Numbered from the stretch's first letter, positions 9,067-16,785 are shown. The stretch is 32,000 nucleotides of DNA from Pleomorphomonas diazotrophica (GCF_002844595.1 NZ_PJNW01000016.1:827-32826), one strand, 5' to 3'. Notes: generated from the sequence alone by a model not told the origin. Numbers and translations are program-made.

Positions 9067-9894
9067 TCAGCCGGCATCCGCCTCGCCGTCGTCGGGCGCG
9101 ACGATGAGCAGCGTGCCGGCGGCCTCAAGCGCCGCCTGGATATCGGACGGCGGCGGCGTGTCCGTAACCAGCGCGAAGACCCGCTCGAGCGAAGCCACCT
9201 TGGCGAAGGCATGACGACCGAACTTGCGACTGTCGGCCAGGACGATGGTCCGCCGCGCCGCCTCGATCATCGCCGCCATCATGGTGGCCTCGGACAGGTG
9301 GCTGGTCCAGAAGCCGGTGGCGTCGACGCCACCAACGCCGATGACGGCCGTGTCGGCGGCAATGGCTCCGGTGCCGACGAAGCCGACCGGACCGACCGTC
9401 ACCTGGGCGCCGGTGCGGATTTCGCCCCCGAGCAGATAGAGGTTCAGGATGGCGGCCGGCGGCACGACCGGCGGCAATCCGAGATTGTTGGTGACGATGG
9501 TCAGGCGCCGACGCATCTCCAGCGCTGCGGCAAAAGCGAGCGTGGTGGTACCGCCATTGACCAGCAGCGTCTCGCCATCGGCGATCAGCTCCGCCGCCGC
9601 CTGCCCGATGCGTGTTTTTGCCGCATGATGCGACTTCATGCGGAGATCGAAGGGCGTATCGGCGGTAGCCATGCTGGACGAAGGAAGCGCACCGCCATGG
9701 ATCCGGCTGACCAGACCCTGCTCGGCCAGGATGTCGAGATCGCGCCGGATGGTATCGAGCGACACGTCGAAACGCGCGCTCATATCCGTCACGGTGATCT
9801 GCCCCAACTGTTGGGCAAGACGGAGAATATCGGCCCGCCGTCGCGCCGGCAGCGTCGCGTCCGAGCCCGCCTTTTCCACGTCTTCCGTCATCAT
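9067..9894 (-). CDS. DeoR/GlpR-family transcriptional regulator
   Basis: 275-aa ORF with an N-terminal HTH (ITVTDMSARFDVSLDTIRRDLDIL) and a DeoR C-terminal sensor domain (LVNGGTTT, VIGVGGVD). It is divergent from the operon that starts at 10107. Confidence 0.9.
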   Translation of the reverse strand: MMTEDVEKAGSDATLPARRRADILRLAQQLGQITVTDMSARFDVSLDTIRRDLDILAEQGLVSRIHGGALPSSSMATADTPFDLRMKSHHAAKTRIGQAAAELIADGETLLVNGGTTTLAFAAALEMRRRLTIVTNNLGLPPVVPPAAILNLYLLGGEIRTGAQVTVGPVGFVGTGAIAADTAVIGVGGVDATGFWTSHLSEATMMAAMIEAARRTIVLADSRKFGRHAFAKVASLERVFALVTDTPPPSDIQAALEAAGTLLIVAPDDGEADAG

Positions 9895-10043: not shown

Positions 10044-10106
10044 GCCAGCTCATGAGAGAAGTTTCGCCAATCGGACGAAACCCCGGAGCACAAGGGAGTG
10101 AAACGC

Positions 10107-11423
10107 ATGACTGACAAAGACGATCATGTCGGCAAGCCCATGGGTGTCGGGCGCCGTCAATTCCTGAAAGTGGCTGGTCTCACCACCGGCGGCGTGCTGG
10201 CCGCACCGGCGATCCTGAAGCTCACGTCGGTCGCCTCCGCGGCGGACCGCACCAACATCACCTTCGCCAGCGCGAAGTTCTTCGGCAAGCGCACCGTCGC
10301 CGAGATGGTGGATGTGTTCAACCAGTCCCAGAGCCGCATCCTCGTCCGCTACGACGAGCTGCCGCCGCCGAGTTCCTCGACGGAAGTCCATCAGGGCTTG
10401 GTGCAGCGCCTCGCCAAGAAGGACGGCTCGCCCGACGTCTTCACGCAGGACGTCGTCTGGATCGCCGAATTCGCTGGCGCCGGCTGGGCTCTGCCGCTCG
10501 ACGAGTATGTGAGCGCCGACGAGGCGGGAGCCTATTTCCCCGGCGTGCTGGCGGCCTGCAAATGGCAAGGCAAGCTGACCGCCCTGCCCTGGTATGTCGA
10601 CAGCGGCATGCTCTACTACCGAAAAGATCTCGTCTCCAAGGCGCCGGAAACCTGGGACGAGCTGGTCGCCGCCGCGACGGACCTCATGAAGGCAGGCAAG
10701 GCCAAGATCGGCTTCTCCTGGCAGGCCAAGCAGGCCGAGGTGCTGATCTGCGATCTCGTGGAGTTCGTGACCTCCAACGGCGGCAGCATCCTCGGCGACG
10801 ACGGCAAGACCGTTCACATCGCCGACGACGCGGCGATCGAGGCCGTGCAGTTCATGTATGACACCATCGAGAAGTACAAGATCAGCCCGCCGGACGTCCG
10901 GAGCTGGGACGAGGAGCCCTCGCGCACGCCGTTCACCGGCGGCGACGTCGCCTTCCTGCGCAACTGGTCCTACGTTTACTCCATCTGCCAGGACAAGGCG
11001 GCCTCCTCGGTGGTCGACAAGGTCGGCGTCGTGCCGCTGCCGCATTTTGCCAACGGCAAGAGCGCTGCCTGCCTCGGCGGCTACCAGTATGGCGTCAATG
11101 CCTCGACCAAGAACCGGGACGCGTCCGTCGAGTTCCTGAAATGGCTGTCGAGCCCGGAGACGCAGCTGCTGTTCGCCACCGAACTCGGTCTCGCTCCGAG
11201 TCGGCCGGCCGTGTTCGACAGCGCCGAACTCGGCAAGGCGCAGCCGTTCATGCAGACGCTGAAGCCGGTGTTCGTCGGCGCCACGGCGCGTCCGGTCACG
11301 CCGAAATACTCTCAGGTCTCCCTGGCGCTGCAGTCGGCCGTTTCCAAGGCCGTCACCAACGGCAACGTCGCCGACGCGCTCAAGGACGCCAAGGCCAAGC
11401 TTGAGGGCATCGTCGGCGCATGA
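10107..11423 (+). CDS. ABC transporter extracellular solute-binding protein, family 1 (CUT1), Tat signal
   Basis: ORF 10098..11423. ATG 10107 is preferred because AAGGGAG lies about 9 nt upstream; GTG 10098 is also possible. Twin-arginine motif GRRQFLKVAG and a MalE-like fold (DVFTQDVVWIAEFAGAGW, WYVDSGMLYYRKD). Confidence 0.85.
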   Translation: MTDKDDHVGKPMGVGRRQFLKVAGLTTGGVLAAPAILKLTSVASAADRTNITFASAKFFGKRTVAEMVDVFNQSQSRILVRYDELPPPSSSTEVHQGLVQRLAKKDGSPDVFTQDVVWIAEFAGAGWALPLDEYVSADEAGAYFPGVLAACKWQGKLTALPWYVDSGMLYYRKDLVSKAPETWDELVAAATDLMKAGKAKIGFSWQAKQAEVLICDLVEFVTSNGGSILGDDGKTVHIADDAAIEAVQFMYDTIEKYKISPPDVRSWDEEPSRTPFTGGDVAFLRNWSYVYSICQDKAASSVVDKVGVVPLPHFANGKSAACLGGYQYGVNASTKNRDASVEFLKWLSSPETQLLFATELGLAPSRPAVFDSAELGKAQPFMQTLKPVFVGATARPVTPKYSQVSLALQSAVSKAVTNGNVADALKDAKAKLEGIVGA

Positions 11424-12367
11424 CCACGCTTCCGTCAGCCGGCCTCACGGCCGGCAACCGACGGAGCAAACGACTGACGCAGAGGAGCCGTGCCGAACGG
11501 TGGGCGCCTCTGCTCTTTCTCCTGCCCGCGGTCCTCACCCTCATCACCGTCTCCGTCTATCCCGTTCTCGACGGCATGCGCCTTTCCTTGCGCAACACCA
11601 TGCTGTCGACCCAGGAAGACGACTTCGTCGGCCTCGCCAACTATGTCCGGCTCACCGGCGATCCGCAATTCTGGTCGGCCTGGCAGCACACCATGCTGTT
11701 TACCGCCGCATCGACGCTGCTCGAGACGGTGATCGGCATGGCCATGGCGCTGGTTCTCTACGAGACCTTCAAGGGCCGGGGCTGGGTGAGGGCCGCGATG
11801 CTGGTTCCCTGGGCCATTCCCACCGTCGTGACCTCCAAGATGTTCGGCTGGCTGTTCGACGGCCAGCACGGCGTGGTCAACTGGTTGCTGAGGCAAGCCG
11901 GCCTGATCGACGGCTACGTCAACTGGTATGGCGACAGCCAGACCGCGCTTCTCACCATCATCATCGCCGACGTCTGGAAGACGACGTCCTTCATGGCGCT
12001 GTTGCTGCTGGCCGGTCTGCAAACGGTGCCGCATTCGCTGGTCGAGGCCGCACGGATCGACGGCGCGGGTTCCTGGCAGTGCTTCTGGTCGATCCGGCTG
12101 CCGCTGTTGTTCACGACGCTGCTGATCGCCGGCATGTTCCGCGCCCTCGACGCCTTCCGCATCTTCGACCTCGTCTACGTGCTGACGGGCGGCGGGCCGG
12201 CCGACTCCACCGAGGTTCTGTCGACCCTGTCCTACAAGGTCCTCTTCTCGGGGCTCGACTTCGGCTACGGCAGCGCGCTCTCGGCGGCCATGTTCATCAC
12301 CGAGGCGATCATCGCGCTGGGCTTCGGTCTTTTCATCGTTCGCCGCATGCGGCGCGACAACGGCTGA
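11420..12367 (+). CDS. Carbohydrate ABC transporter permease (MalF/UgpA-like)
   Basis: 315-aa ORF. ATG 11420 overlaps the binding-protein TGA (ATGA). EAA-loop region EAARIDGAGSWQCFWSIRLPLL. Confidence 0.9.
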   Translation: MTTLPSAGLTAGNRRSKRLTQRSRAERWAPLLFLLPAVLTLITVSVYPVLDGMRLSLRNTMLSTQEDDFVGLANYVRLTGDPQFWSAWQHTMLFTAASTLLETVIGMAMALVLYETFKGRGWVRAAMLVPWAIPTVVTSKMFGWLFDGQHGVVNWLLRQAGLIDGYVNWYGDSQTALLTIIIADVWKTTSFMALLLLAGLQTVPHSLVEAARIDGAGSWQCFWSIRLPLLFTTLLIAGMFRALDAFRIFDLVYVLTGGGPADSTEVLSTLSYKVLFSGLDFGYGSALSAAMFITEAIIALGFGLFIVRRMRRDNG

Positions 12368-12377
12368 GGAGGAAACC

Positions 12378-13223
12378 ATGCTGTCTTCCTGGCGCACCCA
12401 GCTCCTGATCACCCGGATCGCGCTCTACGTGGCCTCGGCCCTGATCGTCGTCTGGTCGGTGGCGCCCTTCCTGTGGCAGGTGTCGACGTCCTTCCAGGAG
12501 GATCGACTACTGTCGGCGCCAACACCGAGTTTCCTGCCCTGGCCGGGCACCCTCGACCATTTCCGCAACATCTTCGTCGAGAAAGAGTTCCACCTCTACA
12601 TAGTCAACTCGGCCATCGTGGCGGGATTGACCACGCTGTTCTGTCTCGCCATCGGCGGAGCCGCCGCCTTCGCTCTGGCCCGTCTGCGCGTCTACTACCG
12701 CTTCGGCATCCTGGCGCTGATCCTGTCGGTGTCGATGTTCCCGCAGATCGCCATCGTCGCGCCGCTCTATCTCGCCGCGTCGGCGCTCGGGCTGATGAAC
12801 ACCTACACCATCCTCGTCATCATCTACCTGTCGCTCGGCCTGCCGCTGGTGATCTGGGTGCTGTTCGGCTACTTCCAGACCATTCCGCGAGAGATCGACG
12901 AGGCCGCCATCATCGACGGCGCCGGGCCGTTGCGCCTGATGATCTCGGTCATCCTGCCGATGTCGCTGCCCGGCTTCGTCACCACCGGCCTCCTCGCCTT
13001 CATCATGGCCTGGAACGAGTTCATGTTCGCGCTCGCCTTCACCTCGGGCGTCGATCGCCAAACCATTCCCGTCGGCATCGCCAACTTCACCAACCTCTAC
13101 TACGTCCCCTGGGGCGACCTCGCCGCCGCCTCCGTGGTGGTGACGCTGCCGCTGGTCCTGCTGGTGCTCGGCTTCCAGCGCTGGATCATCCAGGGGCTGA
13201 CGCAGGGCGCGGTCAAGGAATGA
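12378..13223 (+). CDS. Carbohydrate ABC transporter permease (MalG/UgpE-like)
   Basis: 281-aa ORF with GAGGAGGA upstream. EAA loop DEAAIIDGAGPLRLMISVILPM. Confidence 0.9.
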   Translation: MLSSWRTQLLITRIALYVASALIVVWSVAPFLWQVSTSFQEDRLLSAPTPSFLPWPGTLDHFRNIFVEKEFHLYIVNSAIVAGLTTLFCLAIGGAAAFALARLRVYYRFGILALILSVSMFPQIAIVAPLYLAASALGLMNTYTILVIIYLSLGLPLVIWVLFGYFQTIPREIDEAAIIDGAGPLRLMISVILPMSLPGFVTTGLLAFIMAWNEFMFALAFTSGVDRQTIPVGIANFTNLYYVPWGDLAAASVVVTLPLVLLVLGFQRWIIQGLTQGAVKE

Positions 13224-14542
13224 TCGCCATGAGCATCCCCCATGCCAAACCCACGGCGTCGATCGATTGGGCCCGCGCCTATGACCGGCTCGTTGACGGG
13301 ATACCGGCTGTCGTTGCGGACGCGACAAGGCTGGTCACCGGCTTTGCCGTCTGCCTCGATCGGCGGATCGACCTGCACGCCGTCGCACCAATCCTCGCCG
13401 ATCGCCCGGAAGTCGGCGCCCAGCGCCTGTTCGCCGAGTTGATGGCCCGCGCCAAGGCCGGTCGCGGCGGTGAAATGCTGGTAGGCGACTGGCCCGGCGG
13501 GCCATCCTTCTTCGATCCGCATACCTTGCCGGGCGGCACGGCGATCGGCGGCACGTCGGCCCAGGCGGCCTGGACGCTGGCGGCGATCGGAGCGCCCTCC
13601 CTGCTCGCTCTCGGCGAGGTCGGGCCGGAGGAGCTCGCCGCGCTGCACGCCGGCATCGGATTGGCCGAAAGCGAGACGACGGTCGGCTCGCCGCGCCGCC
13701 GCTGGCCGGCGCTTTGCGACAAGCCGGCGCACTACATCGTCGAGTATACCGCCGGCCACCCCCTGCCCGGCTTCGTTGCCGAACGGTCGACCCGCATCAT
13801 CGTCCGTTTCGCCGACGAAGCCCTGCATGAAGACGCCCTGTTCGACCGTTGGGTCGCGGCGAATGGACATCAGTTGCGCGCCGGTCTGCTGTCATCTCCG
13901 AATACCATTCCGCTTGCCGAGCTGCCGGTCGCCCTTGCGCGCCTGTCAGGGGCGGCACGGGCCTGGCGCAGGTCCGGCTTGTCGGTCGTCCACCTCGAAC
14001 TCGGCGCCTATCCCTGGCCCGGAACGCTCGATGCGACGCTGGAAAGCCTGGCGCCCGAGGTCACGTCGATCGGTCTCAATCAGAACGAGCTGCGCGGCCT
14101 GGTGCCGGGCGATGATCCGGTCGAGCAGGCGGACGCGCTGTCGCGGTGGCTCGGCGTCGATCGCCTGGTCGTTCACGCCGACGGTTGGGCGCTTGCCGTC
14201 ACCCGCGGCGACGCAAGGGTGGAGATGGACGCGCTCGCCATGGGCTGCCTGCTCGCCGCCTCGCGTGCCGAGGCCGGCCAGCCGTCGTCGCGACCACGTA
14301 TCCCGCATGGAGCGCGCTTCGATCCGCCGCCTGCTCCGCCGGTGTCGCGGCTGCCGGATGGTCGCCAGATCGTCTGCGTCGCCGCTCCCTATCTCGAACG
14401 CCCCGCCTCGACCGTCGGCCTCGGCGACAGTTTTACCGCCGGCTGCCTCCTCATTCATTCCATCGTCGATCACCAGCCCGTTCTCGGCTTGGCCGATTTG
14501 GCCGCGCCGGCTGGCTCCGAAACAGACTTACGGAGACCGTAA
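13220..14542 (+). CDS. ADP-dependent glucokinase/phosphofructokinase-family sugar kinase (ribokinase superfamily), substrate unknown
   Basis: C-terminal 440 aa of ORF 12473..14542. ATG 13220 overlaps the permease TGA 13221-13223. It can be aligned block by block with Pyrococcus ADP-GK from memory: GFAVCLDRRIDL vs LLGYNTNIDA, TAIGGTSAQAA vs LRMGGQAGIMA, VVHLELG (HxE, 13991-13999), IGLNQNEL (NxxE, 14078-14089), LVVHADGWALAVT vs IHFHTYGYYLALT, STVGLGDSFTAG (GxGD, 14417-14428) vs STVGIGDTISSS. Confidence 0.75.
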   Translation: MIAMSIPHAKPTASIDWARAYDRLVDGIPAVVADATRLVTGFAVCLDRRIDLHAVAPILADRPEVGAQRLFAELMARAKAGRGGEMLVGDWPGGPSFFDPHTLPGGTAIGGTSAQAAWTLAAIGAPSLLALGEVGPEELAALHAGIGLAESETTVGSPRRRWPALCDKPAHYIVEYTAGHPLPGFVAERSTRIIVRFADEALHEDALFDRWVAANGHQLRAGLLSSPNTIPLAELPVALARLSGAARAWRRSGLSVVHLELGAYPWPGTLDATLESLAPEVTSIGLNQNELRGLVPGDDPVEQADALSRWLGVDRLVVHADGWALAVTRGDARVEMDALAMGCLLAASRAEAGQPSSRPRIPHGARFDPPPAPPVSRLPDGRQIVCVAAPYLERPASTVGLGDSFTAGCLLIHSIVDHQPVLGLADLAAPAGSETDLRRP

Positions 14543-15618
14543 TGGCACCCGTTTCCCTCAGGTCCGTCACCAAGGCCTATGGCTCATTCGAGGTGATCCA
14601 CGGCATCGATCTGGAGATCGAGGACGGTGCCTTCGTCGTCCTGGTCGGCCCGTCGGGCTGCGGCAAGTCGACGCTGCTCCGAATGATCGCCGGCCTTGAA
14701 ACGATCAGTGGCGGTGAGGTGGTCATCGACGGCGAGGTGATGAACGATGTGCCGCCCAAGCACCGCGACATTGCCATGGTGTTCCAGAACTACGCGCTTT
14801 ACCCGCATATGACGGTGGCGCAGAACATGGGCTTCTCGCTACGCCTCACCAAGGTGCCCCAGGCGGAAGCGGCGGAAAAGATCAGGGCCAGCGCCGACAT
14901 CCTCGGCCTCACCGACCTGCTCGACCGCTATCCCCGCCAGCTGTCCGGCGGTCAGCGCCAGCGCGTCGCCATGGGCCGGGCGATCGTCCGCAACCCCAAG
15001 GTCTTCCTGTTCGATGAGCCGCTCAGCAACCTCGACGCTGCCCTGCGCATGCAGATGCGCGTCGAGATCGCCGAACTGCACCAGAAGCTCGGTACCACCA
15101 TGATCTACGTGACGCACGATCAGGTGGAGGCGATGACGCTCGCCACCAAGATCGCCGTCGTCAACAAGGGCAGGCTCGAACAGGTGGCGCCGCCGGTTCG
15201 TCTCTATGAGCGGCCGCAGAACCTCTTCGTCGCCCGGTTCATCGGCGCACCGCAAATGAACATTCTGCCCGCCCGCCTTGCCGGCGCCGCTGAGGCGCGC
15301 CTTGGCGATGGAAGCGTGATCGCCCTGCGGCGATCGATGCCGCTTGGCGAAGGGAGCGGCGTGAGCGTCGGCATCCGCCCCGAAGCCCTGCTGCTTTCAG
15401 AAGACGGACCGCTCGGTGGCCGCGTCACCCTCGCCGAGCATCTCGGCGGCCTGACGCTCGTCCATATCGCCCTCACCGACGGAACGCCGGTGGTTCTACA
15501 GGCGGTCGGAGCTCCCACCGTCGCAGTGGGCGACCTCGTCCGCCTGCGCATCGATCCGGCTGGATTGCATCTGTTCGATCCAGAGGGGCGCCGCATCTCC
15601 ACCCCCGGCGAAAGCTGA
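14542..15618 (+). CDS. Carbohydrate ABC transporter ATP-binding protein (MalK/UgpC-like)
   Basis: C-terminal 358 aa of ORF 14146..15618. ATG 14542 overlaps the TAA of the kinase gene (TAATG). Walker A GPSGCGKST, LSGGQRQRVA, Walker B FLFDEPLSNLD, and a C-terminal MalK-type regulatory/TOBE domain. Confidence 0.9.
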   Translation: MAPVSLRSVTKAYGSFEVIHGIDLEIEDGAFVVLVGPSGCGKSTLLRMIAGLETISGGEVVIDGEVMNDVPPKHRDIAMVFQNYALYPHMTVAQNMGFSLRLTKVPQAEAAEKIRASADILGLTDLLDRYPRQLSGGQRQRVAMGRAIVRNPKVFLFDEPLSNLDAALRMQMRVEIAELHQKLGTTMIYVTHDQVEAMTLATKIAVVNKGRLEQVAPPVRLYERPQNLFVARFIGAPQMNILPARLAGAAEARLGDGSVIALRRSMPLGEGSGVSVGIRPEALLLSEDGPLGGRVTLAEHLGGLTLVHIALTDGTPVVLQAVGAPTVAVGDLVRLRIDPAGLHLFDPEGRRISTPGES

Positions 15619-15689
15619 CCTTCCCGCAACGCCGCCACGAAAGCCGGCGGCAACCCAACCCAAGAAACCAAGTACCCAAGGAGAACTCG

Positions 15690-16694
15690 ATGTTTCGCAT
15701 GAATGCCAAGCTCGCCAAGATCCGGGCCGGCAACTACGCCAAGGGCGACTTCATCATCGCCGACGCCAAGGACGGCGACATGTCCAACCCTATCCCCGGC
15801 ACCGGGCCGATCCGCGACAAGGACGGCAAGTTCGTCCGTTTCCGGACGCGAGCCGAGTTCCTGGAGATGATCACCGATCTGATCCGCCAGGACCTGCTCG
15901 ACATCATGCTGGTGTCCTGTTCCAACCTTGAGCTGCTGCAGGAGGCCGGTGCCTTCAAGAACAGCCCGGTGCGGCCGGCCTTCCGCGCCAACGACACCAC
16001 CGACATCTGGGGCGCCCGGCCCAACGGCTATGGCAAGCTCGGCCCGTCGCGCCCGTTCCGCACCCCGTCGCTGAAGCGGATATCCGAGGCCAAGCTCGGA
16101 AACCTCGGCCTTTACTCGATCACCTTCGTCAACGACATCGAGGCCGACTTGAGGTCGCTCGAAGCCTTCAGCGAGTTCCGCGAGGACGCGGCCAAGAACG
16201 GCATCGAGTATTTCCTGGAAGTGTTCAATCCCAACGTCGAGTGCGGCATCGCGCCGGCGGACGTCGGCTCGTTCGTCAATGACAACCTCGCCCGCTGCCT
16301 GTCGGGCGTGCTGCGCGCCGACCGGCCGCAGTTCCTGAAGTATCCCTACAACGGCGCCAAGGCGCTGGAGGAACTGGCCTCCTATGACCCGCAGCTGGTG
16401 GTGGGCGTGCTCGGCGGTGGTGCCGGCACCACGCGCGACACCTTTGAGCTGCTGTTCCAGGCCGAGAAATACGGCGCTCGCGTCGCCCTGTTCGGCCGCA
16501 AGATAAATCTCGCCGAAAGCCAGCTCGACATGGTCCGCCACATGCGCGCGGTGGCCGACGGCGAGATGAGGCCGCTCGAAGCCGTCAGGTCCTACCACGC
16601 CGTGCTCAAGGAAAAGGGCATCTCCCCGGTCCGCAGTCTCGACGACGACAGCATCGTCACCGAGGCGGTCCTGAAGGCCGCGGCCTCCGCCTGA
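15690..16694 (+). CDS. Class I aldolase-like TIM-barrel protein (DeoC/DhnA-FbaB archaeal type), substrate unknown
   Basis: 334-aa ORF with GGAG upstream. QFLKYPYNG (Lys codon 16338-16340) resembles the Schiff-base segment GADIVK(x)xYTG of archaeal/DhnA aldolases. VGVLGGGAG..D....GARVALFGRKI resembles NSGGAAG...GGMGLILGRKAF of E. coli FbaB. N-terminal FIIADAKDGD lies where the DHG substrate-binding strand is expected. Confidence 0.6.
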   Translation: MFRMNAKLAKIRAGNYAKGDFIIADAKDGDMSNPIPGTGPIRDKDGKFVRFRTRAEFLEMITDLIRQDLLDIMLVSCSNLELLQEAGAFKNSPVRPAFRANDTTDIWGARPNGYGKLGPSRPFRTPSLKRISEAKLGNLGLYSITFVNDIEADLRSLEAFSEFREDAAKNGIEYFLEVFNPNVECGIAPADVGSFVNDNLARCLSGVLRADRPQFLKYPYNGAKALEELASYDPQLVVGVLGGGAGTTRDTFELLFQAEKYGARVALFGRKINLAESQLDMVRHMRAVADGEMRPLEAVRSYHAVLKEKGISPVRSLDDDSIVTEAVLKAAASA

Positions 16695-16715
16695 CACCGT
16701 TTCCATGCAGCCTCT

Positions 16716-16748
16716 CGCCCGGAGCGATCCTCCCGCTCCGGGCGTTTT
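16716..16748 (+). terminator. Rho-independent terminator closing the DeoR-linked operon
   Basis: cgcccggagcg (16716-16726) and cgctccgggcg (16734-16744) form a perfect 11-bp stem with a 7-nt loop, followed by TTTT (16745-16748). It lies 22 nt after the stop at 16694. Confidence 0.85.
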
Positions 16749-16785
16749 CCGGACGCCGGGGTGGAGCTGTCGATCCAGAGCGCTT

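Follow-up and report, generated by a model that had tools for sequence, protein, structure and literature searches.

What does the last gene of a transporter- and kinase-bearing operon encode in a stretch of 32,000 nucleotides of Pleomorphomonas diazotrophica DNA (GCF_002844595.1 NZ_PJNW01000016.1:827-32826), referred to here as the window and used for all positions given below? The open reading frame (ORF) at 15690–16694 specifies a protein of 334 residues, P0001, which a first-pass annotation had described as a divergent class I aldolase-like protein with a putative Schiff-base lysine at codon 217, on the basis of short motifs resembling those of DhnA/FbaB and archaeal class IA aldolases. 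The motifs quoted for that description were all present in the translation (FIIADAKDGD at residues 21–30, QFLKYPYNG at 214–222, VGVLGGGAGTTRD at 238–250 and GARVALFGRKI at 262–272), and the position of the lysine codon (15690 + 216 × 3) was correct. Our analysis indicates, as the best explanation, that the protein represents a remote side branch of the DhnA/FbaB group within the class I aldolase superfamily, and we consider it probable that it acts as a Schiff-base (class I) aldolase cleaving a ketose phosphate made by the neighbouring kinase.

Homologues of P0001 number in the thousands, with identities of 45–96%, and nearly all of them are named 'hypothetical protein'. A word-indexed search yielded at least 7,971 significant clusters at 90% identity among 8,000 candidates scored, and an exhaustive search of 50%-identity representatives gave 891 clusters at an expectation value (E) ≤ 0.001, 164 of them at E ≤ 1e-30; the closest homologue among the matches listed, 96% identical, belongs to Pleomorphomonas oryzae. 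According to the genome records, members occur in many Alphaproteobacteria and also in Gamma- and Betaproteobacteria, Verrucomicrobiota, Chloroflexota, Myxococcota and a metagenome-assembled genome (MAG) of the Solirubrobacterales (Actinomycetota), with plasmid-borne members in Rhizobium, Sinorhizobium, Shinella, Agrobacterium and Vibrio. Given these thousands of homologues and the 14 invariant columns of a 50-sequence alignment (A2), the ORF is a real conserved protein and no chance frame. A minus-strand ORF of 500 residues at 15204–16706 was rejected as its antisense shadow, clustering only with antisense frames of the same gene elsewhere.

Searches with existing family models did not place the protein. 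Against Pfam and NCBIfam, P0001 gave chance-level matches only, the best in Pfam being hnRNP_Q_AcD at E 0.07, and the DeoC/LacD model PF01791 matched neither P0001 at E ≤ 10 nor any of 50 diverse relatives at E ≤ 1; across the whole genome, the same model matches three other genes and not the aldolase-like gene. Likewise, PF09863 (DUF2090) had no match to P0001, to the 50 relatives (E ≤ 1) or to the PfkB fusions described below, a single-sequence phmmer search of the PDB with P0001 returned only OPA1 at E 0.5, and no paper describing a characterised family member was found in the literature searched. The family is without a Pfam or NCBIfam model and fails the database definition of every named family. 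This agrees with the earlier description of the remainder of the protein as diverged, no model of either database recognising P0001 or its 50 relatives.

We used the alignment A2 for an AlphaFold2 model and for sequence profiles. The model showed an eight-stranded β/α (triosephosphate isomerase, TIM) barrel with a mean predicted local distance difference test score of 95.7 and a predicted template modelling score of 0.93, in which the sixth strand, comprising residues 216–219, carries Lys217. Its best Foldseek matches were LsrF, the ADH synthase MJ0400 of M. jannaschii, the fructose-1,6-bisphosphate (FBP) aldolase (FBPA) of T. tenax, LacD and YihT. By structural alignment (VIA-align and the Foldseek-independent search given below), the best match was MJ0400 (2qjg/2qji; Z 23.9–24.1, root-mean-square deviation (rmsd) 2.9–3.0 Å over 255 residues, the upper Z and the 2.9 Å being those of 2qji), along with E. 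coli LsrF (3glc, 4p2v; Z 23.4–23.9, 23.9 for 4p2v) and T. tenax FBPA (1ojx/2yce; Z 22.5–23.3, 23.3 for 2yce, rmsd 2.7–2.9 Å over ~245 residues), followed by YihT and LacD (Z about 20–21.4) and eukaryote-type class I FBP aldolases (about 19–20). A search independent of Foldseek over 48,161 chains returned class I aldolases in all of its first 11 rows (Z 23.9–17.5), compared with a Z of 15.1 for the best unrelated barrel.

The sequence profiles led to the same superfamily. LsrF was the only solved protein that the A2 profile reached in the PDB at a significant E-value (5.9e-06), and hhalign of A2 against an alignment of nine DhnA-family proteins, drawn from the P. diazotrophica genome and its relatives, returned, with a probability of 97% and E 1.1e-10, a match of 273 columns that spans nearly all of the protein; against the single LsrF-like sequence of the genome, the probability was 74% and the match covered the C-terminal 85 columns only. 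Thus, at an identity to solved aldolases of 10–16%, structure and remote-homology searches alike placed the protein with the class I aldolases and with no other TIM-barrel family, as the aldolase call of the first-pass annotation had anticipated. Its further suggestion of a new specificity subgroup of the DeoC/FbaB superfamily is a plausible hypothesis.

Residue conservation was counted over 218 full-length relatives, of which 214 gap-free rows were used for D25, K27 and D28 (Table 1). Lys217 is kept in all but four of them, and D71, R99, D198, G239 and G242 are invariant. Two independent profile alignments, with LsrF and with the DhnA family, put Lys217 on the catalytic lysine; the LsrF residue in question is a Lys in 3gkf/3glc and an Ala in the mutant chain 4p2v (K203), and LsrF K203 is described as the structural counterpart of the lysine that forms the Schiff base throughout the class I aldolases (PMC2728841). 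The strand-7 glycines and the strand-8 GR motif, both predicted to bind phosphate, fall on the LsrF phosphate ligands G226, G227, G253 and R254 (PMC2728841). Proton shuttling is performed by a Glu in most class I aldolases and by a Tyr in archaeal FBPA and ADH synthase, LsrF having neither (PMC2728841). In the family, the strand-5 motif L-E-V-F-N-P, which contains the candidate proton shuttle Glu177, has as its aligned counterparts 'MVEPL' in several DhnA relatives, 'Y-P-R' in others and A-V-T-G in LsrF, and F179, aligned where archaeal FBPA has its Tyr, is kept in 215 of the 218 relatives. To mimic the classical active site, the changes W144E/Y146F were reportedly introduced into T. tenax FBPA; the natural motif of the family is E-x-F.

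Comparison with the closest solved relatives delineates the family from each of them. The family shares with the DhnA/FbaB class IA aldolases (COG1830; part of PF01791) a strand-6 lysine, a strand-7 GG loop and, ahead of a conserved C-terminal helix, the motif GR(N/K)I. Unlike these enzymes, the family protein has about 80 additional residues, with strands 1 and 3 each followed by an insertion, carries DAKD for DHG and L-E-V-F-N-P for W-x-Y-P-R-G, i.e. a Glu and no Tyr donor, and escapes PF01791. LsrF, a 3-hydroxy-5-phosphonooxypentane-2,4-dione thiolase, differs in having no acid at the strand-5 position of Glu177, its NCBIfam model NF006081 gives 13.3 bits vs a cut-off of 297 and covers the C-terminal 80 residues only, and the genome contains an LsrF-like gene of its own on contig C36. 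MJ0400 is 12% identical to the family protein and belongs to a biosynthetic archaeal pathway, whereas the family is encoded in kinase-linked, probably catabolic operons; the MJ0400 proton donor is a Tyr and not a Glu (PMC2728841).

To delineate the genomic context, all ORFs of 80 genomic loci and the window were clustered and recurrent clusters annotated (n = 81). A sugar kinase was located within 4.5 kb of the aldolase-like gene in 77 of the 81 loci, belonging to the PfkB type in 56 (usually as the next gene downstream), to the ADP-dependent type in nine, to the FGGY type in nine and to the prokaryotic ketohexokinases in three. Two natural fusions, P0133 (727 residues) and P0139 (674 residues), join an amino-terminal aldolase-like domain to a carboxy-terminal PfkB domain. 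In a quick maximum-likelihood tree with Shimodaira–Hasegawa-like approximate likelihood-ratio (SH-aLRT) support, the window falls into a seven-row clade (SH-aLRT 100) whose members all lie beside an ADP-dependent-type kinase of the same cluster, and the members of a separate 44-row clade (SH-aLRT 95) are all paired with PfkB. The type of the kinase partner hence tracks the aldolase clade.

Such pairing has precedents. LacD (tagatose-1,6-bisphosphate) and YihT (sulfofructose-phosphate) are class I aldolases encoded beside the PfkB kinases LacC and YihV, and kinase-paired class I aldolases define several classic sugar pathways, such as those of tagatose, sulfoquinovose and inositol breakdown. 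The family resembles LacD and YihT in its kinase-then-cleave logic and in having a strand-5 Glu, the catalytic one in those two enzymes and a candidate here, and differs from them in a structural match slightly weaker than that to the DhnA group, in other strand-1 and strand-6 motifs, and in giving no sequence-profile hit to them. DUF2090 (PF09863), a long-unrecognised aldolase-like domain of myo-inositol catabolism that is fused or adjacent to the PfkB kinase IolC, was likewise identified from its context (PMC9007349). The PfkB partner of the present family scores best, if weakly, with the model of IolC (70 bits vs a cut-off of 300), and here too the aldolase-like domain is fused or adjacent to its PfkB kinase; unlike in DUF2090–IolC, the order in the fusions is reversed, the aldolase-like domain being amino-terminal, and the IolC–DUF2090 of the genome is a separate gene. 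Aligning the family to the DUF2090 domain of the genome with hhalign gave a probability of 0.1%, a weak test as the template was a single sequence. By analogy, the aldolase–kinase pair may be likened to the LacC/LacD, YihV/YihT and IolC/IolJ(DUF2090) pairs.

Several neighbourhoods contain further enzymes. On the Vibrio nigripulchritudo plasmid pVNTG1 (L084), the genes run in the order FGGY kinase, Zn-alcohol dehydrogenase, GlpD-like dehydrogenase, aldolase-like gene, aldehyde dehydrogenase. On the Agrobacterium fabrum plasmid pAtN33_94 (L081) and the Martelella plasmid pMM593 (L123), the string consists of a GlpD-like flavin adenine dinucleotide (FAD)-dependent dehydrogenase, FGGY kinase, CUT1 transporter, aldolase-like gene and SorC regulator; a CUT1 transporter also belongs to the Vibrio cluster. 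In three Verrucomicrobiota MAGs (L056, L073, L077), at about 10–12 kb of each locus, the aldolase-like gene is followed by a D-lyxose-type isomerase (PF07385) and a prokaryotic ketohexokinase (PF25270). The Vibrio, Agrobacterium/Martelella and Verrucomicrobia neighbourhoods fit the cleavage of a phosphorylated ketose to dihydroxyacetone phosphate (DHAP) and an aldehyde. Regarding their overall appearance, the three plasmid clusters have the look of a polyol-phosphate route, reminiscent of eryA/eryB loci with the aldolase replacing the isomerases, and the Verrucomicrobiota string looks like a compact module leading from aldose via ketose and ketose phosphate to cleavage.

Fold, residues and context together are probably best read as a Schiff-base aldolase acting on the product of its neighbouring kinase, where three points are inferred: that the protein is a lyase, where the sugar is phosphorylated, and which sugar it is. 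For the window, the binding-protein-dependent transporter of the operon would import a free keto-sugar or a related α-hydroxy-ketone; the imported compound is probably already a ketose, as the window's clade contains only transporter, regulator, kinase and aldolase. The ADP-dependent-type kinase would phosphorylate the primary hydroxyl next to the carbonyl, and the aldolase would hold this phosphate by its strand-7 GG loop and strand-8 GR motif. Lys217 on strand 6 would then form an imine with the substrate carbonyl and, with Glu177 and one Asp of the DAKD motif shuttling protons, the C3–C4 bond would be cleaved to yield DHAP and an aldehyde.

A number of observations weigh against this assignment, and they concern the active site, the solved relatives and the loci in turn. 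At the active site, the family has neither the strand-1 DHG nor the strand-5 W-x-Y-P-R-G found in archaeal FBPA and ADH synthase. The alignment did support the placement of FIIADAKDGD in the DHG region of strand 1, as first proposed, but hhalign introduces a two-residue gap at DAKD, so that either D25 or D28 may correspond to the catalytic Asp. Furthermore, the four most remote relatives (P0147, P0189, P0240, P0224; 30–39% identity) lack Lys217 and may represent non-catalytic or mechanistically different offshoots. Their lack of the lysine, the absence of any Pfam or NCBIfam match and the low identity to solved aldolases would all fit a protein that shares the TIM-barrel fold only and is no Schiff-base enzyme, or is non-catalytic. 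We regard this as highly improbable in view of the significant full-length profile homology, the exact alignment and near invariance of the lysine and of the residues that would bind phosphate, and a Z gap of about 8 between the aldolases at the top of the search and the other barrels. As to the four remote proteins themselves, the position of Lys217 is occupied in them by L, F, Q or E, and P0189 and P0240 have a Pro/Ala-rich linker and share a C-terminal tail (…DPDFD.MT..EKL.YNQ+.RDRIFG).

Regarding the solved relatives, the closest ones include the thiolase LsrF and the transaldolase-like ADH synthase, so that the fold alone does not fix the reaction. LsrF acts downstream of LsrK, a sugar-type kinase. 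A DhnA-fold Schiff-base enzyme that is no simple lyase, be it an acyl-transferring thiolase as in LsrF, a transaldolase as in ADH synthase or an isomerase of the phosphorylated sugar made by the kinase, would hence be in keeping with the two best sequence and structure matches and with a kinase next door. This appears unlikely to us, since the NCBIfam model of ADH synthase, like that of LsrF, remains far below its cut-off (12.3 vs 241), the family keeps the strand-5 Glu typical of true aldolases, at a position where LsrF has neither Glu nor Tyr, and an aldehyde as product fits the Vibrio cluster, whose next gene downstream encodes an aldehyde dehydrogenase.

At the level of the loci, the 81 that were analysed are interrelated, so their counts are not independent, and several of them carry two kinases (FGGY and PfkB), which would fit a bisphosphate substrate. 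The enzyme would then be a ketose-1,n-bisphosphate aldolase, similar to those for FBP or tagatose bisphosphate, releasing DHAP and a phosphorylated aldehyde after two phosphorylations, in agreement with the FBP and tagatose-bisphosphate aldolases among its closest structural relatives. Sugar phosphates are substrates of ADP-dependent phosphofructokinases (PFKs) and of PfkB enzymes, LacC and 1-PFK among them, which speaks for the same possibility. The haloarchaeal succession of ketohexokinase, 1-PFK and FBP aldolase points in this direction as well (PMC11519228). In contrast, only one kinase is found in the window's clade, its transporter is one for solutes that carry no phosphate, the genome already contains a class II FBP aldolase, and the clusters with GlpD-like and aldehyde dehydrogenases point to a non-phosphorylated aldehyde product, rendering the bisphosphate substrate an improbable one, if the least so of the three alternatives. 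Cleavage of a ketose phosphate obtained from the neighbouring kinase is therefore the reading that we retain.

The distribution of the gene is that of an accessory function. Of the 17 genus genomes searched, 6 have the window-type copy and nearly all have a PfkB-linked one; among 121 relatives searched, 23 genomes contain the family. Such patchy occurrence of the window-type copy is what one sees with accessory catabolic genes and not with glycolysis, and we rejected a role as housekeeping FBP aldolase on this ground and because of the class II enzyme of the genome. The profile PF00274 had no match in the genome, and it had none in the control genomes either, rendering this comparison uninformative. 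P. diazotrophica itself carries a second family copy on contig C6 (33882–34898; L086:1501–2529), about 60% identical to the copy in the window and directly followed by an ORF of 337 residues (L086:2532–3545) whose counterpart in the related loci L008 and L016 is a PfkB kinase. The LsrF-like gene, the IolC–DUF2090 fusion and the class II FBP aldolase of the genome are all separate genes. The first of these (C36:22750–23643; L092) is a close LsrF homologue, suggesting a locus for lsr-type autoinducer-2 (AI-2) processing, and LsrF homologues were found in 15 of 16 other genus genomes and in few other genera of the order.

The features of the window are compiled in Table 1. A GC-rich hairpin and U-tract 3′ of the stop codon indicate that the aldolase-like gene is the last of its plus-strand unit, consistent with the operon position initially assigned to it, and related loci likewise have a DeoR gene alongside the cluster.

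Table 1 Features of the window around the aldolase-like gene; starts marked provisional may shift.
Feature	Position	Strand	Basis
Aldolase-like coding sequence (P0001)	15690..16694	+	334 aa, no internal stop; homologues and AlphaFold2 model
Ribosome-binding site GGAGA	15680..15684	+	5 nt 5′ of the ATG; read from the sequence
Asp25-Ala26-Lys27-Asp28, end of strand 1, in place of DhnA 'DHG'	15762..15773	+	D25 211/214, K27 209/214, D28 211/214; hhalign on A-x-DH motif
Glu177, strand 5, candidate proton shuttle	16218..16220	+	217/218; aligns with Glu of 'MVEPL'-type DhnA relatives
Lys217, strand 6, candidate Schiff-base lysine	16338..16340	+	214/218; aligns with LsrF K203 and DhnA-family lysine
G239-T247 (GVLGGGAGT), strand-7 glycine-rich loop, predicted phosphate-binding	16404..16430	+	G239, G242 invariant; G243 217/218; G242-G243 on LsrF G226-G227
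G269-R270-K271, strand-8 GR motif, predicted phosphate-binding	16494..16502	+	G269, R270 each 217/218; on LsrF G253-R254
Intrinsic terminator	16716..16748	+	11-bp GC-rich stem, 7-nt loop (hairpin 16716-16744), then UUUU; RNA fold of 16695-16770
MalK-like ATP-binding cassette ATPase, directly upstream of the aldolase-like gene	14539..15618 (start provisional)	+	Pfam ABC_tran, OB_MalK, TOBE_2
ADP-dependent-type (PF04587) sugar kinase	13220..14542	+	Pfam ADP_PFK_GK, E 1.1e-14
CUT1-type binding protein and two permeases, same unit	10098..13223, binding protein 10098..11423 (binding-protein start provisional)	+	Pfam SBP_bac_1, two BPD_transp_1
DeoR/GlpR-family regulator, divergent	9067..9894	-	NCBIfam GlpR/AgaR/SrlR-like, E 3e-47

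Besides the window's operon type, one PfkB-linked clade (L028, L034, L035, L043, L044, L046, L048, L076) carries a histidine phosphatase (PF00300) after the aldolase–kinase pair, often followed by a major facilitator superfamily transporter and a transaldolase, a module distinct from that of the window. Three recurrent clusters (u16, u19 and u29), located upstream on the same strand in 12–20 loci and lacking any Pfam, NCBIfam or PDB match, were rejected as partners, since they are shadow frames antisense to genes for argininosuccinate synthase, a pyruvate-kinase-like protein and a PAP2 phosphatase. Such shadow ORFs were seen at L035:4000–10000 and in ~20 related Roseiarcus-like loci, where ORF lists mislead in high-GC DNA.

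Taken together, our data describe a large kinase-paired family of the class I aldolase type with an intact catalytic core, yet annotated as 'hypothetical'. For enzymology the advance is incremental, as fold and mechanism are known; its use lies in annotation, where a name for the family and knowledge of its substrates would help to complete the metabolic reconstructions of bacteria from soil and rhizosphere. The same knowledge would also functionally anchor the bacterial ADP-dependent-type kinases and add DHAP-dependent aldolases, possibly with new stereochemistry or acceptor range, for biocatalysis. Going further, we put forward tentatively, as a real possibility that falls somewhat short of being probable, that the family marks, as their signature enzyme, one or more routes of sugar or polyol catabolism not yet described. 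In the window's clade, the ADP-dependent-type kinase would then be a ketose 1-kinase, and its product would be split by an aldolase family that annotation has missed. If this is true, thousands of 'hypothetical protein' genes in at least five bacterial phyla would mark unrecognised carbon-source pathways.

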